A stretch of 64,000 bases of DNA from an uncultured Ignavibacteria bacterium. GTDB lineage: Bacteria > Zixibacteria > MSB-5A5 > CAIYYT01. The notes under the pieces were generated by a model, which searched no databases, was not told where the DNA came from, and was given only the letters and a program-made list of their open reading frames with translations. The position numbers were made by a program, and so were the translations under genes. Of the stretch, positions 2,138 to 17,667 are shown in pieces. Location: positions 522,545-586,544 of the forward strand of contig CAYJKI010000002.1 of NCBI GenBank assembly GCA_964370935.1. The letters run 5' to 3'. Within the stretch, counting starts at the first letter, position 1. The number at the start of each line of letters is the position of its first letter.

Positions 2138-2893
2138 TTGGAAGTCTGGACATATACTTTAGTAAGTGTCGCGGTGGTGAGTCTGATCTCGCTGGTCGGC
2201 GTATTCACGATGTCGCTCTCGCGCGACCGACTCCAGCGGATAACTCTCTATCTGGTGGCATTTGCAGTCGGCGGACTATTTGGCAACGCGTTTATTCATT
2301 TGCTGCCCGAAGCGTTTCATCATAGCGAGTCCTCGATAATGACGTCGCTTCTGATTGTCGTAGGCATCATGATCTTCTTTGTTCTGGAGAAGTTCCTGCG
2401 CTGGCGGCATTGCCACGTGACTTCGCATCAACACACGCATCCGATGGCGACGCTGAACATCGTGAGCGACGCATTGCACAATCTTATTGACGGCGTCCTG
2501 ATTGGTTCGACCTTTCTGGTCAGTATTCCGCTGGGATTGACAACTTCTGTGGCGATTGTCTTGCATGAAATACCGCAGGAAATCGGTGATTTCGGTATTC
2601 TCATACATAGTGGAATGACCGTTAAGCGGGCACTGATATTTAACTTCTTGTCGGCTTCGGTCGCCATGATCGGAGCAATAGTGGTTTTGACTTTTGGACC
2701 GAGCATTGGACACCTAACCGAGGCGATGATTCCGGTGACTGCCGGAGGATTTCTCTACATTGCCGGTTCTGATCTGATTCCGGAATTGCAACACGATGTC
2801 AAGTTGTCGAACTCGGTGGGTCAATTCATCTGCATCATTCTCGGTGTCGCCACAATGGCGCTTTTGGTAAGCATCAGCTCCCACGCACATTGA
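2138..2893 (+). CDS. zupT: ZIP-family divalent metal (zinc) transporter, ZupT-like
   Basis: 251 aa polytopic membrane protein. Carries the HEIPQEIGDFGIL signature of ZIP transporters and a His-rich loop (HCHVTSHQHTH). Confidence 0.8.
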   Translation: MEVWTYTLVSVAVVSLISLVGVFTMSLSRDRLQRITLYLVAFAVGGLFGNAFIHLLPEAFHHSESSIMTSLLIVVGIMIFFVLEKFLRWRHCHVTSHQHTHPMATLNIVSDALHNLIDGVLIGSTFLVSIPLGLTTSVAIVLHEIPQEIGDFGILIHSGMTVKRALIFNFLSASVAMIGAIVVLTFGPSIGHLTEAMIPVTAGGFLYIAGSDLIPELQHDVKLSNSVGQFICIILGVATMALLVSISSHAH

Positions 2894-2944: not shown

Positions 2945-4300
2945 GTGTGGATTCTAACGCGTTACGTCCTTAGGGAGCATCTCGGTCCCTTTCTCTTTGC
3001 TTTTTTCATTATCACATTTGTCCTGATCATCGACTTTATCCCGCGCATGCTGGAGTTGATCATCGGCAAGGACCTTTCGGCCTGGACGGTGGTCAAGTTT
3101 CTGGTCCTGAACCTTGCTTGGATGTTGGCGCTGGCGGTCCCGATGGCAGTATTAGTCGGGACACTGATGGCGTTTGGCCGAATGACCGGCGACAAGGAAA
3201 TTCTGGCGATAAAATCGCTGGGGATCGATCTCTTTCGTTTGATGATTCCGGTCATCATTGCGGCATCATTGATTGGCGGCGGTCTGATCTGGTTTAACAA
3301 CGACGTTTTGCCGGAAGCAAATCACATGGCGTCAAATCTGCGAAGCGATATTGGCCGGCTGCGCCCGGCTTTGCAGATACAGCCCGGTGTTTTTGTGGAC
3401 GATATCCCCGGCTACATCGTCCTGGTGGATGATATTGACCACAAAACTTCGAAGATTAGGGGTGCTGTGATTTATGACCGCACCAACCAGAACCTTAACC
3501 GGACAATTACAGCCGATTCCGGGACAGTAGAATTTTCACCGCGCGATGAGATGATCACATTTCATCTGATGAGCGGACAGGTGCACGAACAAGACCGCGA
3601 CAACGCACGTGACTACCGGATTTCTGCTTTCCGATCACAAACATTCAAAGTCGGCAACCTGGAAACGCGGCTGAAAGAGACACAACAGGATTATCGAGGC
3701 GACCGGGAAATGTCGGCACCGCAGATGCTGGAAAAGGTCCACGGTTGGGAGAAAGAGATTGACGAATATCGAAATGCAGTGGTTCTGGATACCGACTCTT
3801 CGTTGCTCGACATATTAGCCGCCCCACAGAAAGTCGTGGAAGGCGAAAATCGCGGAGCGCGCGAGTGGCTGGCATACGCGGTCGGACAATCCTACAATAA
3901 GATTGTCCAGATGACGAGACTCTTCAAAACCAGACGAACACAGATTGCGACCAACATCAAGTTGATTTCCAAGTATTCCGTGGAGATCCACAAGAAGTAC
4001 TCGCTGCCGGCGGCGTGTCTGGCGTTCATCCTGATTGGCGCGCCGTTGGGAGTCGTCAGCCGTGGCGGCGGAATGGCGCTATCAGTCGGAATTTCGATTG
4101 GTCTGTTTACGGTCTACTGGGCGTTTCTGATCGGAGGCGAACAATTGGCCGATCGATTGATTATCCCAGCCTGGGTCGCGATGTGGGCGGCGAACATACT
4201 GATGGTAGGTCTCGGATTGATTTTGATTTATTGGGTACGGAGCGAGAAGAGCTTTTTGTCGGCGCTACAAACCATCTTCTGGCGGAGCAACCGGAATTGA
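2945..4300 (+). CDS. LptF/LptG-family LPS export permease (YjgP/YjgQ)
   Basis: 451 aa. N-terminus MWILTRYVLREHLGPFLFAFFI... with six predicted TM segments and a periplasmic beta-jellyroll insert. It is paired with a downstream paralog, as expected for lptF/lptG. Confidence 0.75.
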   Translation: MWILTRYVLREHLGPFLFAFFIITFVLIIDFIPRMLELIIGKDLSAWTVVKFLVLNLAWMLALAVPMAVLVGTLMAFGRMTGDKEILAIKSLGIDLFRLMIPVIIAASLIGGGLIWFNNDVLPEANHMASNLRSDIGRLRPALQIQPGVFVDDIPGYIVLVDDIDHKTSKIRGAVIYDRTNQNLNRTITADSGTVEFSPRDEMITFHLMSGQVHEQDRDNARDYRISAFRSQTFKVGNLETRLKETQQDYRGDREMSAPQMLEKVHGWEKEIDEYRNAVVLDTDSSLLDILAAPQKVVEGENRGAREWLAYAVGQSYNKIVQMTRLFKTRRTQIATNIKLISKYSVEIHKKYSLPAACLAFILIGAPLGVVSRGGGMALSVGISIGLFTVYWAFLIGGEQLADRLIIPAWVAMWAANILMVGLGLILIYWVRSEKSFLSALQTIFWRSNRN

Positions 4301-5394
4301 GTATCCTCGCCCGTTATCTGCTTAGGCGTTTTTTCCTGACGTTTGTCGTTTCGATCGCCTGCTTCATCCTGATATTCGACCTCGTCAATCTTGTCGAGAA
4401 CATCGGCAAGTATGTTGAGTCGGGGGCGAGAGCTTCGGATATCGCGCTCTACTATCTGTACTTCACTCCTTTCATCGTCGTATTGACTTGTCCGATTGCG
4501 ACACTGCTTGCTGCGATATTTTCAATCGGGCTACTCGCAAAGACGAATGAACTGACGGCGATGAAAGCCGCAGGCATATCAATTTACCGAATCGCCGTGG
4601 TGTTGATGACGGGAGGCTTCGTGATTGCCGGCGGCCTGTGGGTCTTCGGTGAATTGGTGCTGCCGGAAGCCAATCATCAGAAGAACATTATCAAGACAGA
4701 ACGAATCGAGCGACGAAAATCGGAGAGTGCCGGAGTCTATCGCAATCAACTGTTTCAGGGGTTAGACGGCCGCATATTCCAGTTCGGTAATTACGTGTCC
4801 AAATCGGCGACCGGAGAGGATGTTTTGATTCAAACTTTCGAGGGGCGGTCATTGAGACAAATCATCACAGCCAAAAAGCTGGAATGGCGTGACTCAATCT
4901 GGGTCGGTACCGGTGTCAGCTTGAAGGAAATCGGCGATCTTGACACAGCGAGCCAGCCAATATTGTCAGTTACTCACGACTCGCTCGTATTCTCGAATTT
5001 TCGCGAGCAACCGGGATTCTTTGAAGATTGGTTTACCCGTCAGGACGCTTACTCCATGGACTATTTCAAATTGAAACGTTTCATCGCCGTGAGCCGCGCT
5101 TTGGGTAAGGATGTGACGCCACAGACGGTGGATTTATACAATAAGACCTCATTCCCACTGATCAATGTCATCATCATTCTCATTGGTGTGGCGTTGGCGT
5201 CGAATCCACGCCGTGCAGGAATAGGAATTAGCTTCGGGCTATCGATGGGTATTTCGTTTGTTTTCTTCACAATGGTCAAAGTGGCAATCGAGATGGGACA
5301 TAATGGAATTATCACGCCGATCGTTGCGGCCTGGGGGACCAATGCCGTTTTCTTCGTTCTCGGGTTGATCCTTCTGCTTCGCGTACCCAAGTAG
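4297..5394 (+). CDS. LptF/LptG-family LPS export permease, second copy of the pair
   Basis: The track ORF 4015-5394 extends upstream into the previous gene. The homologous region begins at ...SILARYLLRRFFLTFVV. A TTG at 4297 overlapping the upstream stop (TTGA) is the proposed start. Confidence 0.7.
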   Translation: MSILARYLLRRFFLTFVVSIACFILIFDLVNLVENIGKYVESGARASDIALYYLYFTPFIVVLTCPIATLLAAIFSIGLLAKTNELTAMKAAGISIYRIAVVLMTGGFVIAGGLWVFGELVLPEANHQKNIIKTERIERRKSESAGVYRNQLFQGLDGRIFQFGNYVSKSATGEDVLIQTFEGRSLRQIITAKKLEWRDSIWVGTGVSLKEIGDLDTASQPILSVTHDSLVFSNFREQPGFFEDWFTRQDAYSMDYFKLKRFIAVSRALGKDVTPQTVDLYNKTSFPLINVIIILIGVALASNPRRAGIGISFGLSMGISFVFFTMVKVAIEMGHNGIITPIVAAWGTNAVFFVLGLILLLRVPK

Positions 5395-6297: not shown

Positions 6298-6330
6298 CCG
6301 GTCCTGCATAAAGCAGGGCCGGTTTTTTGA
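6298..6330 (+). terminator. Rho-independent terminator
   Basis: CCGGTCCTGC-ATAAA-GCAGGGCCGG forms a 10-bp stem (one G-U pair) with a 5-nt loop. It is followed immediately by TTTTTTGATTT. Confidence 0.8.
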
Positions 6331-6368
6331 TTTCAAGTAAGCCCAAGTCTTTGTCGATACTACTCTTG

Positions 6369-7373
6369 ATGCTCTCGCAATCGGAACACTTGCTGAAAAA
6401 GCGACAGGAGGCTGGACAGCCGGCGTTTATCCCGATCCATGTCGAGTCGCTGCGAATCGACAAGGTATTGGGATTTGATATCTACATCTATGTCGGGCGG
6501 GAGTTGGTGCTCTATCGCTCACAAACGCTCCCCTTCACCAACGAGAATCTCGAGCGGCTCCGTGAGAACAATGTTCAGCAGATCTTTATCGCCCATGATT
6601 CGAAAGCGGCCTATCAACGATATATCGAAGAGAACTTATCGGATATCCTCACCGATCCGAAAATCGAAGAGGTCAAGAAGGCCGAGATCCTTTACGACAC
6701 TTCGAAAGCACTGATTAAGGACGTACTCGCCAATCCGACTTATTCCGAAAATATCAAACGAAGTCAAAGTTTGGTCGAGAACACGATCGACTACATCTTA
6801 AAAGGGCGCGAAGCATTCTTGAGCTTGATGAAGATCACTTCATTCAACTACTACACCTACACTCATTCGGTGAATGTCGCGACATTCTCTTTGGCGTTGG
6901 CGCGACAGCTTGGTATCGATGACCGTGACCAGCTAATGGTACTCGGAACTGGAGCTTTGTTGCATGATGTCGGCAAGAGCAAGGTGCCGGAGCGGATACT
7001 TACGAAGCGCACTTCTCTGAATCGTTCAGAATTTGAGATCATGAAGAAGCATCCCGGCTGGGGCGGAGACATCCTGCGTGAGACCGACATGATCCATGAG
7101 GAATCGTATTATCCAGTATTGCATCATCACGAACGCATGGATGGTTCGGGATACCCGCACGGTTTGGTGGAAGCGGACATGCATCCCTACAGCCGAATAG
7201 TGGCAATCGCCGATGTATTTGATGCTTTGACAACGGAACGAGTGTACCAATCAGCAATAGAGACATTTTCAGCTCTGAAGTTGATGCACGGTATGAAGAA
7301 TAATTTTGACCCGCAGTTGCTCCGCGAGTTTACGGTCTTGATGGGACCAAACAGTCCCGGTGTGCGCTATTAA
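6369..7373 (+). CDS. HD-GYP domain protein (putative c-di-GMP phosphodiesterase) with an N-terminal uncharacterised domain
   Basis: HDVGK ... HHHERMDGSGYPHGL ... IAIADVFDALTTERVYQ are canonical HD-GYP motifs. The track ORF starts at 6327 inside the terminator T-run. The start was moved to the in-frame M at 6369 (MLSQSEH...). Confidence 0.75.
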   Translation: MLSQSEHLLKKRQEAGQPAFIPIHVESLRIDKVLGFDIYIYVGRELVLYRSQTLPFTNENLERLRENNVQQIFIAHDSKAAYQRYIEENLSDILTDPKIEEVKKAEILYDTSKALIKDVLANPTYSENIKRSQSLVENTIDYILKGREAFLSLMKITSFNYYTYTHSVNVATFSLALARQLGIDDRDQLMVLGTGALLHDVGKSKVPERILTKRTSLNRSEFEIMKKHPGWGGDILRETDMIHEESYYPVLHHHERMDGSGYPHGLVEADMHPYSRIVAIADVFDALTTERVYQSAIETFSALKLMHGMKNNFDPQLLREFTVLMGPNSPGVRY

Positions 7374-7428: not shown

Positions 7429-10400
7429 CTACAGCTCTCTGCCGCGTTTAAGACGATACTCGGCCACGAGGCTGTGCATGACGGGAACCGTCAGCACGGT
7501 AATGAGCGCGATGGTCATTCCGCCAAATGACGGTATTGCCATCGGAATCATGACATCGGATCCTTTGCCGGATGAAGTGAGAACAGGAATCAAAGCCAAG
7601 AGCGTGGTGGCGACAGTCATCAGCGCCGGACGAATTCGAATGGAACCGGCCTGTATAATCGCTTCACGGATTTCCACGGCGGTTGTCGGTTTCTTTTCGG
7701 TAAAGACTTGCTTGATATAGGTCGAAATCAGGACACCGTCATCGGTAGCGACACCGAATAATGCCAGGAATCCGACCCAGACTGCAACAGAGAGATTGTA
7801 CATCTTGATATTGTAGAGCTCGCGGACATTCTCACCAAAGAGTGAGAAGTTCATGAACCAGTCTTGCCCATAGAACCACATCATCAAGAATCCACCGGAC
7901 CACGCCACAAAGATACCGGTGAAGACCAACATTGTGACCGGCACATCTCGGAACTGGAAGTAGATCAGCATAAAGATGATGAAGAGCGCGAGCGGAATGA
8001 CGATTCGCAGCGTTTTCTCGGAGCGAATCTGATTTTCATAACTGCCGGCAAAGCTGTAACTCACACCGGCGGGTATGATAAGCTCACCGGATGCGATTTT
8101 ATCCTTCAGCAGGTGATCGGCTTCCTCGACTACATCAACCTCGGCACGACCTGGCTTCTTGTCGAAGATGACATAACCGGTAAGAAACGTATCTTCGGAT
8201 CGGATCATCATCGGACCGCGAACGTAGTTGATCTGTGCCAACTCAATCAACGGAATCTGCTTGCCGTCGGAGGTTGGAACCAAGACGCGGGCGATGTCTT
8301 CGATGGAACTGCGCAATTCGCGCTGGTAGCGCACGCGGACCGGATAACGCTCGCGACCTTCTACGGTGGTGGTTATCGGCATACCGCCTAGAGCGACCTC
8401 GATAACATCCTGTACATCGCGGATGGATAAGCCGAAGCGGGCGATGGCTTCGCGATCGATCTCAATCTCGAGATATGGATTGCCGACAATTCGATCAGCA
8501 ACAACTGTTGCGGGCTCGACCGAACCGACTTCCTTAAGCAGTCTTTCAACTTCCAAGCCGACGGCATCGACTGTTTCGAGATTTGGTCCTTTGATCTTCA
8601 CACCCATCGGCGCTCGCATTCCGGATTGCAGCATGACGATTCGCGCCGCAATTGGCTGCAGCTTCGGCGCCGAGGTTACCCCAACCACCTTTCCGGCTTC
8701 AACAATTTCTTTCCAGATATCGTTGGTCGATCGAATCTGGTCCCGCCATTGGCGAAACGGTTTGCCGCCCTCGTCCGGAATCAACTTGCCACTCTCATCG
8801 CGGACGAAAGCATTCGAATCATCATCGAATCGAAACTTCAGACGGTTGCCATCTTCACCGCTGATATATTCGGATTTGTAACTTATTACTGTTTCAATCA
8901 TGGATGTCGGCGCCGGGTCGAGTGATGATTCGACGCGGCCAAGTTTGCCGACTACCGATTCGATCTCGGGAATACTCTCGAAGGCCTTGTCCTGAAGCTG
9001 AAGTATGCTCAACGCCTCATCAATTGAGGCATGCGGCATAGTGGTTGGCATGTAGAGGAATGAACCTTCATCAAGGTCAGGCATGAATTCCTTGCCGGTA
9101 CCGGGGAAGGCATGATTAAGCGCGACATACGGTGACGACGAGCGGATGAAGTTCGGGAGGAAACCAAAGATCGAGTCAAAGCCGAGCCACACAACGAAAC
9201 CGATAGAAACCAATCCAACCGGCATTGAAAGAAACAACAGTCTGTTATTCAGGCACCAGCGCAATACCGGTTGATAGACTCGGATGAACATCTGGAACAG
9301 CGCCAAAATCCCGCCGATGACAATGACGACGAAGATGAAATTCAGTAATTCGCCTCTGCCTACGCCCAGCGGCATCCAGTGTTTGGTGAGGATCGAGGCG
9401 ACGAATAAGGCGAGCGCGTAGTTGATGTAGCGCGGCATGTTCCGTTGGAGTGAATCGGAAAGCATTGGCTTGGCAATCATGTAGGCAGCAATTGCCATGA
9501 GCATTAGACCGGCCAACCACAGCGACCAGACGGCAATGAGAGTGACACCCGCGATGCCGAGTCCGATGGGTATGAGACGCGAGCTGCGTTTTTTCCCATC
9601 TGGGTTGCTGAACATCAAGTGTGCTAAAGCCGGTACGATTGTCAAAGCAACGATTACAGACGCGACCAAGGCAAAAGTTTTGGTGTATGCCAGCGGCTTG
9701 AACATCTTGCCTTCAGCTGCAATCATCGTGAACACCGGCAGGAACGAAACAACAGTAGTCGCAATGGTGGTGAGGACCGCCGAGCCGACTTCAGAGGTGG
9801 CGGTGAAAATAATGTCACGGCGCGAAGTCCCGGGTGGGGCTTTATCGAAGTGCCGCAGGATGTTCTCGCAAATGACAATACCCATATCGACAATATCGCC
9901 GATGGCAATCGCAATTCCGGCAAGGGCCATTACATTGGCGTCGACGCCGAACATTTTCATCCCGATAAATGAGCCAAGGACGGCAACTGGCAATAGCCCC
10001 GAAATTAGCAACGAACTCCGCAAGTGCATCACCATCACAAGGACGACGATGATCGTGACGATGATCTCGTCGACGATGGCGGAGTTAAGTGTTCCGAGCG
10101 TTTCATAGATCAGGCCGGTGCGATCGTAGAAAGGCACGATGGTAACTTTCGAGATGGTGCCATCGTTCAGGGTTTTTTGCGGTAACCCGGCAGAGAGTTC
10201 AGCGATCTTGAGTTTAACATTTTTGATTGTTGCCAGCGGGTTTTGCCCGAATCGCGCGACGACAACACCACCGACGACTTCGGCACCGCCTTTATCAAGC
10301 GCGCCGCGCCGCATTGCCGGACCAAGGGTGACCGTGGCAACGTCCTTTAACCGGACGGGCAGGTTATTAGTCTGCTTGATAACTGAATTCTCGAGATCAG

Positions 10401-11217
10401 TGACACTCTTAAGAAACCCGACGCCGCGGATTGTGTATTCGACATTGTTGATTTCAATTGTCCCGGCGCCGACATCAATGTTGGATTTGCGGACAGCTTC
10501 GAAAACGTCCTCGAGCATCACATCGAAGGCGCGTAATGCGCTTGGGTTGACATCAACTTGGTATTCTTTGACGAACCCGCCGATGGACGCAACCTCGGCG
10601 ACGCCTTCAGCAGATTGCAGCGTATAACGCACGGTCCAATCCTGAATCGATCGAAGCTCGTGCAAATCCCAACCACCGGTTGCATTACCCGAAGGATCGC
10701 GCCCTTCAAGCGTATACCAGAAGACCTGCCCCAGCGCGGTCGCATCCGGACCGAGAGCGGGTTTGACGCCGGGAGGGAGAACTTCCGGCGGAAGCGCATT
10801 CAGCTTCTCGAGGATTCGTGTCCGCGACCAGTAGAACTCGACGTCATCGGTGAAGATTATGTAGATCGTGGAGAACCCGAGGTAGGAGTAGCTGCGAATC
10901 GTCTTAACGCCGGGAAGCCCTAACAGCGCCGAGGTCAGTGGATAGGTAATCTGATTCTCGATATCCTGCGCCGAGCGGCCGTCCCATTCGGTAAAAACGA
11001 TCTGCTGATTTTCGCCGATATCGGGTATCGCGTCGACGCCGACCGGGTCGCGCGGAAGAAAGTCAATATCCCAATCGAACGGCGCCACCATCGTGCCCCA
11101 CACGAGCACAGCCAGAGTCATCAGCAGGACGACCAGTTTGTTGTCGAGGCAAAAAGCGATGATGCGGTCGATCAACGACATCTTGGACGGATCGGGGATT
11201 TGATAACGATCGCTCAT
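7429..11217 (-). CDS. cusA: CusA/CzcA-family heavy-metal efflux RND permease, unusually long at 1262 aa
   Basis: HME-RND architecture: twelve TM segments with large periplasmic loops. It directly follows a CusB-like adaptor and a TolC-like gene on the same strand. Confidence 0.9.
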   Translation of the reverse strand: MSDRYQIPDPSKMSLIDRIIAFCLDNKLVVLLMTLAVLVWGTMVAPFDWDIDFLPRDPVGVDAIPDIGENQQIVFTEWDGRSAQDIENQITYPLTSALLGLPGVKTIRSYSYLGFSTIYIIFTDDVEFYWSRTRILEKLNALPPEVLPPGVKPALGPDATALGQVFWYTLEGRDPSGNATGGWDLHELRSIQDWTVRYTLQSAEGVAEVASIGGFVKEYQVDVNPSALRAFDVMLEDVFEAVRKSNIDVGAGTIEINNVEYTIRGVGFLKSVTDLENSVIKQTNNLPVRLKDVATVTLGPAMRRGALDKGGAEVVGGVVVARFGQNPLATIKNVKLKIAELSAGLPQKTLNDGTISKVTIVPFYDRTGLIYETLGTLNSAIVDEIIVTIIVVLVMVMHLRSSLLISGLLPVAVLGSFIGMKMFGVDANVMALAGIAIAIGDIVDMGIVICENILRHFDKAPPGTSRRDIIFTATSEVGSAVLTTIATTVVSFLPVFTMIAAEGKMFKPLAYTKTFALVASVIVALTIVPALAHLMFSNPDGKKRSSRLIPIGLGIAGVTLIAVWSLWLAGLMLMAIAAYMIAKPMLSDSLQRNMPRYINYALALFVASILTKHWMPLGVGRGELLNFIFVVIVIGGILALFQMFIRVYQPVLRWCLNNRLLFLSMPVGLVSIGFVVWLGFDSIFGFLPNFIRSSSPYVALNHAFPGTGKEFMPDLDEGSFLYMPTTMPHASIDEALSILQLQDKAFESIPEIESVVGKLGRVESSLDPAPTSMIETVISYKSEYISGEDGNRLKFRFDDDSNAFVRDESGKLIPDEGGKPFRQWRDQIRSTNDIWKEIVEAGKVVGVTSAPKLQPIAARIVMLQSGMRAPMGVKIKGPNLETVDAVGLEVERLLKEVGSVEPATVVADRIVGNPYLEIEIDREAIARFGLSIRDVQDVIEVALGGMPITTTVEGRERYPVRVRYQRELRSSIEDIARVLVPTSDGKQIPLIELAQINYVRGPMMIRSEDTFLTGYVIFDKKPGRAEVDVVEEADHLLKDKIASGELIIPAGVSYSFAGSYENQIRSEKTLRIVIPLALFIIFMLIYFQFRDVPVTMLVFTGIFVAWSGGFLMMWFYGQDWFMNFSLFGENVRELYNIKMYNLSVAVWVGFLALFGVATDDGVLISTYIKQVFTEKKPTTAVEIREAIIQAGSIRIRPALMTVATTLLALIPVLTSSGKGSDVMIPMAIPSFGGMTIALITVLTVPVMHSLVAEYRLKRGREL

Positions 11218-11220
11218 CGA

Positions 11221-13071
11221 TTAATTCACTGCCTTGAGCGTTTGTTTGGTCTCGCCGCAGCGCAGCATCATCGCGCCATAAAACGAGTTGTAAACCGTGT
11301 CGACAGTCTGCAACCAATAGGCGCCCTTGTTGTCGCGCGCCATCGGGCAAAATGTCAGGTAGTAGTTCATGTCGCTGCCGTGCCCGAAGGCACTCTGAAG
11401 CTCGATGACTGCCTTGGAGAGATAGAAGAAGGCATCGCGTGCGCCTTCAATATCTTCGGCATTCGCCGCCTTCTCCGAAAACTCCTGCATCTGCTGTGAC
11501 AAGTCCATCCAGCGATTATGAGCGGCACCGGAGAAAAGGGACATATCGATGTTAGAAATTGTCTTGGCAAGCTGTGCTGATGATTGTTTGGCAGCGCTGA
11601 TATCGTCCGCCGCCAACGCCATCTGGAACTTGAAATAGTCGTTATAGAGCGGAGCCAGAGCATTGCGAGCGGACTCGGAAACCGTGAGTGCGTCATTCAT
11701 TGCTGCAGGCTCTTTTGCTCCTGAACTGTGATCATGCGATGCTGGTGCGGCCCCGCCTTCGGGTGACATCATGCTTGGCTTCGCCTGAATCTGCAGTTCG
11801 CTGTCGAGTTTGAATGCGCCATTAGTAACCACCATGTCTCCCTCGGTCAATCCTTCGAGCACGACGTAGTGATCGTTGATACGAGAACCGAGTGTGACTT
11901 CCCGGCCTTCAAACAGCGGGCCAACTTCGCTGGGAAGCTGCAAATAAACCACAGCCCGCTTACCGGTAAATAGTACCGCGGATGCCGGCACAAGGAGCGA
12001 ATTGTCGGTTACGTCAGTGCGAGTGCTGATTGCTGATTTTGTCGTTGCCGTTACGAACATGTCGGGTTTCAATCTTCCACCGCCGTTGTCGACGACCGTG
12101 CGCACTTGCACTGTACGAGACATCGGGTCGATTGTCGGGCTGACAAAACTCACCTTCGCCGAAAACTCTTCGCCCGGGACCGACTGTGTGACAAAGTTGA
12201 TTTCGTCACCAGTTTTGAGAAGCGCCAGATCCGATTCGTAGGCTTCGAAGACAGCCCACAATCTTGAGAGGTCAGCGATTCGGAACAAGTCCATTCCGGG
12301 TTCGACATACTGGCCTTCGACGACCATTTTTTCAATGACAGTCCCGCCACCGGGTGCCATAACTGAGATGTGTTCAGTGACATCAGCCTGTGACTCAACG
12401 TTTGCGATTTGCTCATCACTGAAACCAAAAAGCCGCAGCTTCTCTGTTGCGGCTCGAACAGTTGCCTCGGAAGTACTTTTGAGGATCTCGCTGTTTGATT
12501 CAGCCACACTCTTAAGGGAAGCCTTGGCTGCGATAAGTTCCTTCTGCGCGGACAGTAGTTCCGGCGAATAGAGTTCAAGCATTTTTTCACCGCGCCTGAC
12601 AAGCTGACCGGTGGTGTTGATGTACAGCCGATCGATGCGTCCGCCGACGCGAGCAGTTATTCGAAATAGTTTCGTTTCATCGGCGGCCAGTTTGCCGTAG
12701 AGTCTTAGCTCGTTTTGTGCTGTACCGCGTGTGACCGGCGAAGTCGCGATTTGTGCAAGTTGTCTGGAGGACTCGGACATCCGCAGTTGACGCGGACCGA
12801 GGTCTTCCCCGCCGTCAGTAGTAAGTGGAATCAGGTCCATGAAGCAGATCGGACACTTGCCTTCTTTCGGAAGTTTGATCTGCGGATGCATTGAGCAGGT
12901 CCAGACTTGTGGTTCTTTCGACGTTTCCGCCGCGGTGCCAATCTCTGGTGCAGCCGATTTTCCGCCGGAAAGGAGTGCTCCGAGAGCGAAGGCGACAATC
13001 GTCACGGCGGCGATCGCTATCCAGAACGCAGGTTGTCTCATCAGACCATTGCGATTGTTCAACTCACTCAT
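11221..13071 (-). CDS. cusB: CusB-like periplasmic adaptor (membrane fusion protein) with an N-terminal metal-binding motif and a C-terminal DUF3347-like helical domain
   Basis: N-terminal CSMHPQI...CPICFM (heavy-metal-binding domain of CusB-type adaptors). Biotinyl/lipoyl-like and beta-barrel MFP core. C-terminal ~150 aa matches the DUF3347 tail that CusB homologs carry in Bacteroidetes-like lineages. Confidence 0.85.
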   Translation of the reverse strand: MSELNNRNGLMRQPAFWIAIAAVTIVAFALGALLSGGKSAAPEIGTAAETSKEPQVWTCSMHPQIKLPKEGKCPICFMDLIPLTTDGGEDLGPRQLRMSESSRQLAQIATSPVTRGTAQNELRLYGKLAADETKLFRITARVGGRIDRLYINTTGQLVRRGEKMLELYSPELLSAQKELIAAKASLKSVAESNSEILKSTSEATVRAATEKLRLFGFSDEQIANVESQADVTEHISVMAPGGGTVIEKMVVEGQYVEPGMDLFRIADLSRLWAVFEAYESDLALLKTGDEINFVTQSVPGEEFSAKVSFVSPTIDPMSRTVQVRTVVDNGGGRLKPDMFVTATTKSAISTRTDVTDNSLLVPASAVLFTGKRAVVYLQLPSEVGPLFEGREVTLGSRINDHYVVLEGLTEGDMVVTNGAFKLDSELQIQAKPSMMSPEGGAAPASHDHSSGAKEPAAMNDALTVSESARNALAPLYNDYFKFQMALAADDISAAKQSSAQLAKTISNIDMSLFSGAAHNRWMDLSQQMQEFSEKAANAEDIEGARDAFFYLSKAVIELQSAFGHGSDMNYYLTFCPMARDNKGAYWLQTVDTVYNSFYGAMMLRCGETKQTLKAVN

Positions 13072-13155: not shown

Positions 13156-13656
13156 TTATCCGTGGTTGTGACCCTCGTGGCCAGTTGGTTCCTTCTTCTC
13201 TTCTTTCGGAGCCGGCTTTTGTTCGTCGAGCTTCTTCAGGTATTTTTGTGCATCCTTGGGAAACATGCTCTTGCACTTATTGCAGCAGAAGTAGACGCGA
13301 CGACCTTCAAAATCACTGAAGACGCTCTTGTCTTCAAGTGTTTCACCCGAGACGGGGCAAATGGTCTGAATGTTTTGGAATAGTACACCTTCAGCAGCTG
13401 CTTTCCTGAAATACTTATCCGGTTCCGCTTTCAACTTGGCAATGCACATCGGACAGCAGTGGTAGACGCGCTGACCCTGGATGTCGGTATAGACAGTCGA
13501 ATCAATTTTGCCGCCCATGACCGGGCAGTGCGTTTGATTCTTCAGCTCCTTGGGGGCGTCTTTCTTGGAATCGCTCTTGGACTCTTGGCCCAATGCGGCC
13601 ATCGCGGCGACGACGGTCAGCGCGATGATTGCGAACATGATCTTGCGTAATGTCAT
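13156..13656 (-). CDS. Secreted tandem-YHS-domain metal-binding protein with a His-rich C-terminus (putative periplasmic Cu/Ag chaperone, functional analogue of CusF)
   Basis: Signal peptide. Two YHS-type motifs (CPVMGGKIDSTVYTDIQGQRVYHCCPMC and CPVSGETLEDKSVFSDFEGRRVYFCCNKCK). C-terminal GHEGHNHG. Confidence 0.7.
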   Translation of the reverse strand: MTLRKIMFAIIALTVVAAMAALGQESKSDSKKDAPKELKNQTHCPVMGGKIDSTVYTDIQGQRVYHCCPMCIAKLKAEPDKYFRKAAAEGVLFQNIQTICPVSGETLEDKSVFSDFEGRRVYFCCNKCKSMFPKDAQKYLKKLDEQKPAPKEEKKEPTGHEGHNHG

Positions 13657-13672: not shown

Positions 13673-14998
13673 TTATTTATTGGTTGTTGGATTACTTAAC
13701 ATCGTTCCAGTGATCATTTCCAATTGTGCGAGCCGGGAGGCGGCATTGGCTTTGGCGCGTTCCGCCGTTAGTTCGAAATCGAACAGTTGTCGCTGGGCGT
13801 CGAGCAACATCAGGAAATCAGTCTGTCCCGACTGGTAGGATGTAAACGAGACGTTGAGCGACTCTTTCGCTTTCGGGATAAGTCCATTGCGATAGAGTCG
13901 AAGTTTTCTCAAGGCATCTGCGTATTCGAAGTTCGCCATCGCAATCATTGAAGCGACGTCATTGCGCTCTTCCTGATACATATACTCGCTCATCCTGACT
14001 CGCGAACGGGCGGCATCGCGCATGGCACGGTTCTTGCCAAACCAAATTGGCAGGGAAACCTGGACAGTAAGCATATATTCGTTCATGGTCTCCTTCTCAA
14101 GGGTCATGTCATTAAGAAGCGTCGCGCGCTCGTATTCAACGCCAAGCATCAGTTCCGGAAAGGTCATCTTCTTAACCACAGAGACTTCCGCTCGCTGCGA
14201 TTCTATTTGTTTTGCTATTGACGCAAGATCGGGACTCGCGATTTCCGCAAGCGCCACGAGTGAGTCCGTAGAAAACTGCAATTCTGAAACCGCGAATTCA
14301 GCAGGTAGTGGAAGAGTGGTGCCAGGCGGCAGATTGAGCAACGCCAACATCCGTGCCCGCGCCGGGACAAGCATCTGCTCCATACTTCGTATCATCTCTT
14401 CCATTTGTCCCAACTCGATTTGTGCCTTGATTAGGTCGGGATGCATTGCCAGACCGGCTTGATAACGTGTTCGAATGACAATCTCGAACTGGCGCATTAA
14501 CTCGAAGTTCTCCTGGGTCAGTGCCAGTTGTCGTGCCGAGAAGTAGTAGTCATAAAAGGCGGACTTGACTTGGTAAATGGTGCGGAGTTGTTCAGCGAGA
14601 TAGGATTGGTAATTCGCGTCGGAATTCAAGGCTGCAGCGTTCTTCTTGGCGCCTAGAGTACCAAACCAGGGAAACGGCTGCATGATTCCGAATTTCTGGC
14701 GATCAGGTCCAACCGGATCGGAGAATTTTGTGTAACCATACGAGTAACTCAAAAGGGGATTATCGAGGGCACCAGCGGAGCCCTTCATCGCGGTTGACTC
14801 TTGCCACTTCTCGTAAGCAGATTTGAGTCCACTGCGATTACGAAGCGCAAGATCAATGTAGGTTTGCAACGTTGCATTGGAATCAATTGCGGGTATGTTC
14901 GAGCCGTTGGGCAACTCACCAACCACATTGGACTGCCCATTCAACAAGGTCGGTAATGCAACAAACACCAGCAGAATTGTGATCATTAGGTTCTTCAC
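13673..14998 (-). CDS. TolC-family outer-membrane efflux protein (CusC/CzcC-like)
   Basis: 441 aa with a signal peptide (MKNLMITILLVFVALPTLLNG). Duplicated OEP-type coiled-coil/beta-strand repeats. First gene of the efflux operon. The apparent start codon is GTG. Confidence 0.8.
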   Translation of the reverse strand: MKNLMITILLVFVALPTLLNGQSNVVGELPNGSNIPAIDSNATLQTYIDLALRNRSGLKSAYEKWQESTAMKGSAGALDNPLLSYSYGYTKFSDPVGPDRQKFGIMQPFPWFGTLGAKKNAAALNSDANYQSYLAEQLRTIYQVKSAFYDYYFSARQLALTQENFELMRQFEIVIRTRYQAGLAMHPDLIKAQIELGQMEEMIRSMEQMLVPARARMLALLNLPPGTTLPLPAEFAVSELQFSTDSLVALAEIASPDLASIAKQIESQRAEVSVVKKMTFPELMLGVEYERATLLNDMTLEKETMNEYMLTVQVSLPIWFGKNRAMRDAARSRVRMSEYMYQEERNDVASMIAMANFEYADALRKLRLYRNGLIPKAKESLNVSFTSYQSGQTDFLMLLDAQRQLFDFELTAERAKANAASRLAQLEMITGTMLSNPTTNK

Positions 14999-15088
14999 AT
15001 GCTGCTTTATATCAATTAGCGTGCCGTTGATCGTAACTTATTTTATGTCAGCATGTTACCAATTGAAAGCCGTGTTAGATTTGAATCA

Positions 15089-15130
15089 ATTTGGAGAATA
15101 TTCTACAACGATGTAGAATATTCTCCAAAT
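15089..15130. promoter_or_regulatory. Perfect 19-bp inverted repeat with a 4-nt spacer (ATTGGAGAATATTCTACA-ACGA-TGTAGAATATTCTCCAAT). It lies in the divergent intergenic region between the metal-efflux operon and the HK/sigma-54 regulator operon and is a candidate operator or upstream activator site.
   Basis: Read directly from the sequence. Each arm also contains the internal palindrome GAATATTC. The arms are AT-rich with no downstream T-tract, so it is unlikely to be a terminator. Confidence 0.55.
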
Positions 15131-15259
15131 GCCCACTTTGGAATTCGTACCATTTAGAAGGTCAAACGGGCGGTTGCTGTTGTGCAACTTGCTCTTAAGA
15201 GTCTTGTAGGGCGGGTCTTCTGAATACGGCATCGGGATTGCTATAGGAATCGATGAACT

Positions 15260-16333
15260 TTGGAAGGAAGCAAATTGATCAGTATTGATGACCGACGGTA
15301 CAAGATTGCCACGATTACCGCGATTACATTATTAACAACGGCCATTCACTATGGCTATGTGCTTGAGCCGATCTTTGGTGATGCTCACTGGATTCATGCT
15401 GTTCATAGTCGATTCTGCTACATCCCAATTGTAATTGCCGCCGCTTGGTTCGGATTGCGTGGCGGGTTGTGGACCGCGACAGCAATCACCATAACGGTTC
15501 TGCCGTACGTATTTGGTTCCCGATCGAGTGAACACAATTTCGCGGGAGAACTGGTTGAGATCGTGTTTTACTTTGCGCTCGCACTACTGATCGGCGCACT
15601 GGTAGACAGAGAGTGGCGGGCGCGCCGGCGTCAGCAGGAGATGCAACTTCAACTCGAGCGATCGCAGAAACTTTCATTAGTCGGACAGGTCGCGGCGGGT
15701 GTCGCACATGAACTGAAGAATCCGCTGGCTTCCATCAAAGGCGCAGTTGAAATCATCAGCGATGAAAATACCGCTGATATTGAGAGAAGCGAGTTCAAGG
15801 AGATTCTCATTCGCGAAATTAAAAGGATGGATGGTACGGTTACCGAGTTTCTGGAATTCGCCCGTCCGAAGCCGACGCGAATGGAGAGGATTGATCTTTC
15901 GCAACTGGTGCAATCAAGCTTGCGTCAGTTGGAAGCACAGGCGGCGAAGGAGTCGATTCGAATCTCGGAAGAGGTCGAAGCCGGCGAGTTGATCGAAGGG
16001 GACCGCGAGAAGCTCCATCAGTTAATTCTGAATATCGTTCTGAATGCAATCCAGGCTTCGAGAGCCGGCGGCACCATAGAAATCGGACTTCGCGGTCGCA
16101 CCAATGAGGTTGAATTGACGTTCCGCGACAGCGGCCAGGGCATAAGCTCTGGCGATCTCGACCGGATTTTTGAGCCCTTTTATACGACGAGAGCCTCGGG
16201 AAGCGGACTGGGGCTGGCAATCGTAAAATCGATCATCGACGCGCACGGCGGTACCATTGACATTCAGAGTGAAGTCAATGCCGGCACGACGGTCACTGTC
16301 AGGCTGCCGCGCCAAGGCGGGATTCGGACATAA
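15260..16333 (+). CDS. Membrane-anchored sensor histidine kinase (HisKA + HATPase_c) with a His/Cys-rich four-TM N-terminal domain
   Basis: H-box VAAGVAHELKNPLASI. The N, G1 and G2 boxes are present (DSGQGI, GSGLGLAIV). N-terminal ~110 aa are hydrophobic and contain HYGY, DAHWIHAVHSRFCY. Confidence 0.85.
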   Translation: MEGSKLISIDDRRYKIATITAITLLTTAIHYGYVLEPIFGDAHWIHAVHSRFCYIPIVIAAAWFGLRGGLWTATAITITVLPYVFGSRSSEHNFAGELVEIVFYFALALLIGALVDREWRARRRQQEMQLQLERSQKLSLVGQVAAGVAHELKNPLASIKGAVEIISDENTADIERSEFKEILIREIKRMDGTVTEFLEFARPKPTRMERIDLSQLVQSSLRQLEAQAAKESIRISEEVEAGELIEGDREKLHQLILNIVLNAIQASRAGGTIEIGLRGRTNEVELTFRDSGQGISSGDLDRIFEPFYTTRASGSGLGLAIVKSIIDAHGGTIDIQSEVNAGTTVTVRLPRQGGIRT

Positions 16334-17667
16334 TGCGAGTTCTTCTTGCCGACGATGACGCCGCCTTGCGCCGTGTTCTGGAGTTCAAACTGAAGAAGAG
16401 CGGATTTGATGTTATGGCGGTTGCCGACGGCGAGGAAGCGCTCGCACAGTTAAAGGTCGGTGCCTTTGATCTGTTACTTGCGGATATTCGCATGCCACGG
16501 TTGACCGGAATCGAGCTTCTCGAGAAGGTGCGGAAACTGGAACCTTCACTCAAAGTGATTCTGATGACAGCTTATGCGACTGTACCGCAGGCGGTCGAAG
16601 CCGTCAAAATGGGCGCGTTTGACTACTTGACCAAGCCATTTGAAGACGAGCAGCTATTGATGACGATTGATCAAGCCCTGAAGTTCAAGCGGCTCGAGGA
16701 TGAGAACCAACGACTCAAGACGGAGCTAAACCTGCGTTCGGGGCTGAATGAGATCATCGGTGACTCGGAGCCCGTGCGGGAATTGAAGGAAATTATAACG
16801 CAAGTCGCGCCGACTGATGCCACAGTCTTGATTAGCGGAGAATCCGGGAGCGGCAAGGAACTTGTGGCGCGGGCGATCCACGCCTTGAGTCCGCGATCAA
16901 GCGCCCAGATGGTGGCAGTCAATTGTGCAGCATTGCCGCATGATTTGCTGGAGTCGGAGTTGTTCGGCCATGTCAAAGGCGCGTTTACCGGTGCCGCGAA
17001 GGATAAACGGGGGAAGTTTGAGATTGCCGGCGGCGGGACTTTGATGCTCGATGAAATCAGCGAGTTGGCGCTCGATCTACAGGCAAAACTTCTGCGGGCA
17101 ATTCAAGAGCGAATTATATCACCCGTTGGGAGCGAATCAGGTCGCGAAGTTGACGTGCGTATTGTCGCAGCTACGAATGTGAACCTGAAGAAGCGAGTGA
17201 GCGAAGGAAAATTCCGTGAAGACCTATTCTATCGATTGAACGTCATTCCGATTCATGTGCCCAGTCTCCGCAAGCGATCTTCCGATATTCCGCTTTTGGT
17301 GAGCCATTTCTTGAGTCGCCTTGCACCCCGGTCTGATGTCGGTTTGGATGCAGAATTGATGTCGATCTTGGCTAAACATCGATGGCCCGGCAATGTTCGT
17401 GAGTTGGAAAACTTGATCGAGCGCATGGTTGTCCTGCGCCGCGGTGACACCTTGACGAAGGCGGATTTGCCACATGACTTCTCTGCCGAAACGGAAAAGT
17501 CAGATATTCAGCAGGCGGTTACATTCCACGAGGCGGAGAAGAGCTTGATTCTGAATGCGCTGGAACGAAGCAATGGTAATCGCACTAAGGCTGCGGAATT
17601 GCTGGCAATTCCGCGACATGTTCTATTGTACCGCCTGAAAAAATATGGAATTGTCGCCGAGGATTGA
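16333..17667 (+). CDS. Sigma-54-dependent response regulator (NtrC/ZraR family: REC + AAA+ sigma-54 activation domain + Fis-type HTH)
   Basis: REC domain (DDD...K). Walker A GESGSGKE. GAFTGA motif (ESELFGHVKGAFTGA). C-terminal HTH. Its start overlaps the kinase stop (TAATG). Confidence 0.9.
   Translation: MRVLLADDDAALRRVLEFKLKKSGFDVMAVADGEEALAQLKVGAFDLLLADIRMPRLTGIELLEKVRKLEPSLKVILMTAYATVPQAVEAVKMGAFDYLTKPFEDEQLLMTIDQALKFKRLEDENQRLKTELNLRSGLNEIIGDSEPVRELKEIITQVAPTDATVLISGESGSGKELVARAIHALSPRSSAQMVAVNCAALPHDLLESELFGHVKGAFTGAAKDKRGKFEIAGGGTLMLDEISELALDLQAKLLRAIQERIISPVGSESGREVDVRIVAATNVNLKKRVSEGKFREDLFYRLNVIPIHVPSLRKRSSDIPLLVSHFLSRLAPRSDVGLDAELMSILAKHRWPGNVRELENLIERMVVLRRGDTLTKADLPHDFSAETEKSDIQQAVTFHEAEKSLILNALERSNGNRTKAAELLAIPRHVLLYRLKKYGIVAED

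Follow-up and report, generated by a model that had tools for sequence, protein, structure and literature searches.

We analysed a 64,000-nt stretch of contig CAYJKI010000002.1 from an uncultured Ignavibacteria bacterium (the window, to which all coordinates and strands refer) and focused on a long inverted repeat at 15089-15130. The repeat lies in the intergenic region between a heavy-metal efflux operon on the minus strand and a divergent operon for a sigma-54-type two-component system on the plus strand. We consider it likely that this element is a tandem-dyad enhancer from which a regulator of the NtrC family activates both a Cu/Ag-type efflux operon and its own operon at divergent sigma-54 promoters. 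The predicted functional unit is a 16-bp dyad that is present twice, and not the 42-nt hairpin that the two dyads form together.

The repeat has two 19-nt arms (15089-15107 and 15112-15130) that are 100% complementary and are separated by a 4-nt spacer (ATTTGGAGAATATTCTACA / ACGA / TGTAGAATATTCTCCAAAT). An earlier note on this DNA had described it as a perfect palindrome of 42 nt; the perfect 19-nt arms stand, but ACGA is not self-complementary, so the structure is 19+4+19, and the arm string typed there had lost one T/A per arm (ATTGGAG... for ATTTGGAG...). The palindrome doubles as a direct repeat, as indicated by a repeat finder, with a 10-bp palindrome, AGAATATTCT, within each arm. The whole repeat can be described as two copies of a 16-bp dyad, TGKAGAATATTCTMCA, which has the shape TGT-N10-ACA, with centres 20 bp apart and AGAATATTCT embedded twice, once per TGKAGAATATTCTMCA. 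Site 1 (TGGAGAATATTCTACA, 15092-15107) is proximal to the efflux operon and is the predicted site for one regulator dimer, and site 2 (TGTAGAATATTCTCCA, 15112-15127) is proximal to the kinase gene, exactly 20 bp from site 1; neither the sites nor the full repeat are assigned a strand. Each dyad is 14/16 self-complementary and deviates once from the ideal palindrome TGTAGAATATTCTACA, at an outer position, and site 1 accordingly has one mismatch to the family consensus, which is the same TGTAGAATATTCTACA. The 19-nt arms are perfect because the single deviations of two near-consensus palindromic sites mirror each other, and this perfection appears to be incidental to the window and its nearest relatives.

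An inverted repeat of this kind far exceeds what chance would give. In all 64 kb of the window, it is the sole perfect inverted repeat with arms of at least 11 nt (loop of at most 12 nt), and the longest arms in 20 mononucleotide shuffles of the window were 8-10 nt. A functionless chance palindrome would have only the AT-rich composition of the region in its favor. Against it stand the shuffles, which never gave arms longer than 10 nt, and the recurrence of the element in 22 loci, at an unchanged position and with kinase identities as low as 55%, by which this explanation is effectively refuted.

These 22 loci were assembled in three ways. A genome scan with the regulator gave 13 orthologous loci from metagenome-assembled genomes (MAGs) labelled Zixibacteria, Ignavibacteria, and Krumholzibacteria (58-95% identity). 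One locus, L080, was added by a metagenome scan with the kinase, in which the rest were almost only generic histidine kinases matching the catalytic half, and eight more were reached via kinase homologs (55-84% identity; Zixibacteria and Latescibacteria). The kinases of the resulting set (L001-L010, L014, L032, L063, L080, and L161-L168) are 55-96% identical. Dyads of the GAATATTC type are present at the same intergenic position in all 22; the earlier note had named absence from orthologous loci as an outcome that would speak against an operator or enhancer. Searching 1.38 Mb of fetched DNA (159 loci and the window) for the dyad motif returned 18 matches to the 16-mer with at most two mismatches, all of them in the kinase-upstream intergenic region of orthologous loci.

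The arrangement of the dyads is most uniform close to the window. In its own clade of eight loci (the window, L001-L005, L014, and L080), both sites are kept at an unchanging distance of exactly 20 bp, and the 4 nt between them vary (ACGA, TCGT, TTGT, TCAT...). The pattern in more distant clades is a strong dyad accompanied by a half-site, a series of three dyads stepped by 20 bp (L166), or half-sites that are rearranged (L163, L165, and L032). The gene order is also kept, with the kinase-regulator pair divergent from an OEP-(YHS)-adaptor-RND operon or, in some lineages, from a YHS gene alone. In all eight loci obtained from kinase homologs, the genes are laid out divergently as OEP-(YHS)-adaptor | kinase-regulator, and dyads of the GAATATTC type are present together with both of the promoters described below. 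Weak dyad-like pairs with four mismatches each, 20-21 bp apart, were also seen downstream of the regulator gene in L165 (6106-6141) and L167 (6871-6907); these may be more sites of the same regulator or chance matches.

The same comparison separates the dyads from the hairpin. If the element acted as a nucleic acid hairpin, whether as a terminator or attenuator working in both directions, a structured RNA, a cruciform, or a mobile repeat of the REP/MITE kind, one would point to its strong predicted fold as single-stranded DNA (-18.5 kcal/mol, z = -10.3 relative to dinucleotide shuffles) and to weak Rfam matches to generic hairpin models. The best of these matches scored 23.7 bits against a gathering threshold of 140, and all were to miRNA or plastid hairpins and far below gathering scores. 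No terminator-like site was detected in 14900-15350, the stem is AT-rich, and there is no T-tract, in agreement with the earlier judgment that a terminator is unlikely. The element is also probably not transcribed, because it lies between two divergent promoters. Arm-to-arm complementarity falls to 12-13/16 in L080, L004, and L014, where each site remains 12-16/16 self-complementary. In an alignment of eight loci (A1, mean column identity 64%), the long hairpin was paired in 86.2% of cells, compared with 83.8% in shuffles (48 of 500 shuffles were as high), and pairing of each site with itself reached 86.7%, equalling the hairpin figure; no covariation was detected in the hairpin, and there was no signal beyond motif conservation (A1, 500 shuffles). 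The invariant columns of A1 cluster in both 16-mers, in a CGTA to their right, in the GGC and G of the plus-strand promoter, and in the Shine-Dalgarno and start region, and the 4-nt spacer is free. The comparison thus indicates that selection acts on the dyads rather than on the long hairpin, and we regard a hairpin function as very improbable. As the element is single-copy in the window and in each locus, a mobile or dispersed repeat was rejected.

The dyads appear to belong to the kinase-regulator pair. They stay with this pair in two loci in which the efflux operon is missing, L003, where an HD-domain gene is found instead, and L007, where a DinB gene takes its place; neither locus has the efflux promoter, and each retains the kinase promoter. 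Because the dyads and the kinase promoter persist when the neighbor changes, the dyads are tied to the kinase-regulator pair, and autoregulation is implied. L003 (3469-4927; 89% regulator identity) is without the entire four-gene efflux operon and without the promoter of that operon; immediately upstream of its dyads lies the counterpart of the HD-domain gene at 6327-7373 of the window, and its kinase promoter looks decayed (AGGCTTCGGGACTGCC).

A regulator-specific DNA-binding segment is consistent with this link. The helix-turn-helix segment IPRHVLLYRLKKYG of the regulator is conserved in all orthologs in the form IPRH(V/I)L(L/I/V)YR(L/M)KKY, whereas the recognition-helix segment differs in paralogs of at most 49% identity, whose loci are without the dyad motif. 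A rival reading assigns the dyads to a different owner, such as a transcription factor encoded elsewhere (for example, a metal-sensing repressor). No other regulator gene was found to be conserved in the neighborhood of the orthologous loci, and the sites travel with the kinase-regulator pair when the neighbor changes. The neighboring regulator is, on this comparative evidence, most likely the protein that binds the dyads.

On the efflux side, a sigma-54-type promoter, cGGCACgctaaTTGAt (GGCAC-N5-TTGA), is predicted on the minus strand at 15011-15026, with a start at ~15000. Promoters were counted in tabulated loci only, 19 on the efflux side and 17 on the kinase side. Counterparts of the form GGCAY-N5-TTG(A/T), in which N5 varies, occur in 19/19 of the tabulated loci with a divergent efflux or YHS gene, and L003, which has no efflux operon, does not have this promoter either. 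Its distance to the dyads is narrowly set: from the -24 GG to the nearest dyad centre, it measures 74-76 bp in 15 loci and 84-85 bp, one helical turn more, in the other four. In the window, the centres of sites 1 and 2 are 75 and 95 bp from the -24 GG.

The kinase side has a promoter of its own, cGGCATcgggaTTGCt (GGCAT-N5-TTGC), on the plus strand at 15227-15242. This promoter, which is better than the minus-strand one, had been overlooked in the earlier note. GGCAY-N5-TTGC is present in 16/17 loci having a kinase-side promoter, and the GGC and the -12 G are invariant in A1. The layout downstream is canonical, with a predicted start at ~15253, a Shine-Dalgarno-like sequence read as GGAAGGAAG at 15262-15270 (plus strand; AAGGAA is conserved in A1), and a TTG start codon at 15275. 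The kinase -24 GG is 109 and 129 bp away from the two site centres. Counted from the predicted starts, the sites lie near -100/-120 for the efflux operon and near -134/-154 for the kinase operon. Such distances from the start are the usual range for enhancer-binding proteins.

The two promoters differ consistently at one position. At -13/-12, the efflux promoter has GA in 12 loci, GT in 7, and GC in none, and the kinase promoter has GC in 16/17. The minus-strand element had been located before as GGCACG-N4-TTGA at 15025-15012, a position that we can confirm, but was rated low; its conservation in 19/19 loci, including that of the non-C at -12 itself, now argues for a higher rating. The confirmed Escherichia coli pspA (TTGGCACGCAAATTGTA) and pspG promoters also have GT at -13/-12 (PMC4591121). 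The efflux promoter is not disqualified by its non-C at -12, because pspA and pspG share this feature. The consistent contrast between the two promoters suggests a tuning of the two outputs.

Overlapping sigma-70 promoters offer a further reading of the same region, in which the dyads would be mainly a repressor site. Sigma-70-like matches, TGGAGA-16-TAGAAT, are found on both strands inside the repeat (15092-15119 on the plus and 15127-15100 on the minus strand), the equivalents in L005 and L014 are TGAATA/TGGATA-16-TATAAT, and 20 bp to the right of site 2 there is a conserved TAnnnT. NtrC sites that overlap and repress glnAp1 are an established precedent for a dual role and count in favor of this explanation. 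The two sigma-70 matches are nevertheless at chance level (2 found compared with 1.3 expected), and the fixed 75-bp distance to the -24/-12 element is a prediction of the enhancer that is meaningless for a sigma-70 operator. We consider it improbable that the dyads are an operator of another factor or mainly a repressor site. A dual role like that at glnAp1, in which bound regulator would activate sigma-54 promoters and occlude sigma-70 promoters, is possible and is compatible with the tandem-dyad enhancer rather than opposed to it. The conserved sequence to the right of site 2, CGTACCAT (CGTAnnAT, which contains TAnnnT; 15146-15153, plus strand), has TAnnnT at the same offset in 12/12 loci examined and an invariant CGTA in A1; it may supply a -10 box of the sigma-70 type for basal expression of kinase and regulator, or it may be a weak third half-site. 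A MerR-type operator was rejected, as the site is not within a 19-20-bp sigma-70 spacer. By eye, no convincing match to the IHF consensus WATCAANNNNTTR was seen in the DNA that separates the sites from the promoters.

The proteins encoded by the plus-strand operon fit an enhancer. The regulator (16333-17667, plus strand) is a response regulator that depends on sigma-54 and has the REC - AAA+ - Fis-type helix-turn-helix architecture, with Pfam matches to REC, Sigma54_activat, AAA_lid, and HTH_8, and is the proposed dyad binder. It has the GAFTGA motif, Asp51, and the Walker A sequence GESGSGKE and, judged by its domains and motifs, is a competent sigma-54 activator. The histidine kinase (15275-16333, plus strand; Pfam HisKA and HATPase_c, DUF4118-like) has a membrane-embedded N-terminal part without a periplasmic domain. 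Its TTG start at 15275 is supported by orthologs, as it aligns with the ATG in L004, L005, and L014; the list of open reading frames (ORFs) gives TTG 15260. In the N-terminal 110 residues (15275-15650), IHxGW, FG[DH]xxWxHxIHxRxCYIP, and AAWFGLRGG are invariant across orthologs. The kinase N-terminus is a candidate intramembrane metal sensor.

An enhancer of this class is expected to have dyad sites of ~16-18 bp that lie roughly 80-150 bp upstream of a -24/-12 promoter of the GG-N10-GC type, an activator with GAFTGA and a helix-turn-helix, and ortholog-specific conservation. The locus agrees with this description, with the qualification that the efflux promoter has GA, not GC, at -13/-12. The earlier proposal of an operator or enhancer is strengthened by these comparisons: the dyads are conserved, travel with the regulator, keep a fixed distance to a -24/-12 promoter, and go together with a regulator-specific helix. 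The divergent metal-efflux and sigma-54 two-component context that it had assumed agrees with the domain searches. Its distances hold as well, with 91 nt to the efflux GTG at 14998 (~90 nt had been given) and 130 nt to the first in-frame TTG at 15260 (~130 nt), although the distance to the ortholog-supported TTG at 15275 is 145 nt.

We propose that the two 16-bp dyads, with the consensus TGTAGAATATTCTACA, would act as an enhancer (upstream activating sequence, UAS), each bound by a regulator dimer via its C-terminal Fis-type helix-turn-helix. Both sites would lie on the same face of the DNA, because a spacing of 20 bp corresponds to roughly two turns of the helix. Metal stress of the Cu(I)/Ag(I) type is probably the signal for the membrane kinase, which would then phosphorylate Asp51 of the regulator, and the two bound dimers would nucleate an AAA+ hexamer. 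This hexamer would loop to sigma-54 RNA polymerase in the closed complex at the two divergent -24/-12 promoters and open them in an ATP-driven reaction. From the minus-strand promoter (15026-15011), transcription would drive the OEP-YHS-CusB-CusA efflux operon, and from the plus-strand promoter (15227-15242), it would drive the kinase-regulator operon and result in positive autoregulation. We infer looping and activation from the established mechanisms of NtrC and ZraR.

Several observations weigh against this proposal. A scan with the consensus TGGCACG-N4-TTGCW singles out neither promoter, as ~9 hits of at least 10/12 are expected per 64 kb, and the plus-strand promoter scores 9, one below the minus-strand site. 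Since the scan does not discriminate, the promoter calls rest on conservation and geometry. The distance from the sites to the kinase promoter varies (127-167 bp), and phasing there is not strict. In some distant loci (L163, L165, L032, and L168), the dyads are rearranged or degenerate. In the window's clade, as in L163 and L164, no more than 2-5 nt separate the predicted efflux start from the GTG/ATG, which is unusual. An rpoN gene was not found in the 64-kb window with an RpoN-box pattern, and the presence of sigma-54 in this genome is assumed from the GAFTGA motif of the regulator. Finally, all of the support is comparative.

The short efflux leader can be viewed together with the ribosome-binding region. 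No Shine-Dalgarno sequence was seen before the efflux gene at 14996-15012 (minus strand), and the same holds at this place in L001, L002, L004, L005, L014, L163, and L164. Distant loci L165-L168 have efflux leaders of 21-55 nt with a clear Shine-Dalgarno sequence. This suggests either that the efflux mRNA is nearly leaderless in some lineages or that the start point is slightly different.

The closest architectural counterpart is the E. coli zraP-zraS region, which we read directly for comparison (L160). Its inverted repeat, with arms of 20 nt that are 95% complementary and 12 nt apart, consists of two CGAGT-N7-ACTCG dyads and is 67 and 76 bp from the -24 GGs of the divergent promoters TTGGCACGGAAGATGCA (zraP) and ATGGCATGATTTCTGCT (zraS). 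Each of these two promoters is a ChIP-seq site of sigma-54 (PMC4591121), ZraR ChIP-exo peaks lie upstream of zraP and zraSR (PMC7657598), and ZraR controls divergent sigma-54 promoters (PMC4987338); a Salmonella review gives the ZraR enhancer sequence as 'NK'. As in the Zra system, the window has a sigma-54 two-component operon that is divergent from a metal-related envelope gene, a central long inverted repeat of two dyads between divergent -24/-12 promoters, and predicted kinase-regulator autoregulation, and the JGI annotation labels several members of the kinase family HydH (= ZraS). By analogy, this shared architecture suggests that the window element works like the ZraR enhancer. There are clear differences. 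The zra sites are CGAGT-N7-ACTCG at ~31-bp spacing, whereas those in the window are TGTAGAATATTCTACA at 20-bp spacing; unlike ZraS, the window kinase has no periplasmic sensor domain; the place of ZraP as target is taken by a CusCBA-like RND efflux operon with a YHS protein; and the efflux promoter has a conserved non-C at -12. Membership in ZraPSR was rejected (regulator NF007689, 413 bits compared with 760; kinase NF007688, 214 compared with 479; no divergent ZraP).

The mechanistic model is NtrC at glnAp2, where REC-AAA+-Fis-HTH dimers bind two adjacent dyad sites ~100-140 bp upstream of a sigma-54 promoter. These sites nucleate the active oligomer and act by DNA looping, and overlap with a weak sigma-70 promoter is possible. 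The window would resemble glnAp2 in its two adjacent dyads for a REC-AAA+-Fis-HTH regulator and in a possible weak sigma-70 overlap. It differs in that the NtrC site is TGCACC-N5-GGTGCA and the window regulator is below the NtrC model cutoffs, in that metal efflux and not nitrogen is concerned, and in that one enhancer would serve two divergent promoters.

The outline of the dyad also recalls the NifA UAS, whose motif is TGT-N10-ACA (e.g., PMC2820453). The consensus TGTAGAATATTCTACA is literally TGT-N10-ACA and is located ~100 bp upstream of a -24/-12 promoter; this outline fits the family consensus, and each window site departs from it at one outer position. Unlike in NifA sites, where the inner 10 bp are free, these are conserved here (AGAATATTCT), and there are no nif genes nearby. 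NifA itself was rejected, as the regulator has a REC and not a GAF domain, scores 347 with the NifA model (cutoff 529), and has efflux genes as its predicted targets.

In function, the locus is comparable to CusRS/CopRS, which are likewise two-component systems divergent from a CusCBA-like heavy-metal RND operon, with the exported metal as the presumed inducer. CusR and CopR are OmpR-family regulators that act on sigma-70 promoters via a direct-repeat box. The window differs from them in having a sigma-54 activator of the NtrC family, palindromic sites, and -24/-12 promoters. No paper describing this regulator family or site was found when the literature was searched for the motif string and for cus/czc-type efflux under sigma-54 control.

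More tentatively, the locus could typify a large, so far uncharacterised family of two-component systems that control metal efflux through sigma-54 in Zixibacteria, Latescibacteria, and candidate phyla related to them. Such a family might be characterized by intramembrane metal sensing through invariant His/Cys residues (FG[DH]xxWxHxIHxRxCYIP), by one enhancer serving two promoters that differ at -12 and would therefore have different thresholds or basal levels, and by a near-leaderless efflux mRNA in the window's clade; we regard this broader view as possible but doubtful. More than 1000 kinase homologs were found at E 1e-40 or better, and the kinase family is widespread in uncultured FCB-related phyla. 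What the comparison provides for this uncharacterised family of regulators is a concrete predicted recognition sequence, TGTAGAATATTCTACA in two copies spaced by 20 bp, together with a promoter map. It also suggests that copper/silver-type RND efflux in these lineages is wired via sigma-54 and an enhancer rather than via the OmpR-type CusRS circuit of proteobacteria. The motif and the paired promoters could be used for regulon prediction in complete MAGs and as parts for metal biosensors, and the -12 difference between promoters sharing one enhancer is a small natural experiment in sigma-54 promoter tuning. A textbook mechanism would be extended to new lineages, which is useful for annotating candidate phyla, and current understanding is not overturned: this is a well-conserved but ordinary kind of bacterial enhancer that holds no surprise for a specialist.

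The efflux operon has four genes, all on the minus strand. The first encodes an outer-membrane efflux protein (13673-14998; Pfam OEP), whose GTG start is kept in L001 and L002. It is followed by a gene for a secreted metal-binding protein with a YHS/TRASH domain (13156-13656; Pfam YHS) and by one for a CusB-like periplasmic adaptor with HMBD and DUF3347 domains (11221-13071; profile and Pfam matches). Besides a signal peptide, the YHS/TRASH protein has two YHS-like halves that are rich in Cys and a tail rich in His (HEGHNHG), and in several distant loci its gene is the sole divergent target, at the place that ZraP holds in E. coli. The last gene encodes a 1262-aa heavy-metal RND pump of the CusA/CzcA family (7429-11217; NCBIfam TIGR00914, 749 bits compared with a cutoff of 701). 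The pump is ~200 aa longer than usual, with an extra hydrophobic segment around residues 540-700. Its motif in transmembrane segment 4 is AIGDIVDMGIVICEN, which we take to resemble that of CusA and not the DFG-DGA-VEN of CzcA. We infer a Cu/Ag-type metal identity for the system.

Just beyond the RND pump is the HD-domain gene (6327-7373), and an AsmA-like gene follows the regulator gene on the plus strand. A ZIP-family zinc transporter gene is located ~12 kb from the efflux locus (2138-2893, plus strand), and the motif search of the window found no dyad motif near it. Next to the ZIP gene, two ORFs of the LptF/LptG family (2945-4300 and 4015-5394, plus strand) overlap by ~285 nt as listed, and the second probably starts downstream of its longest-ORF start.

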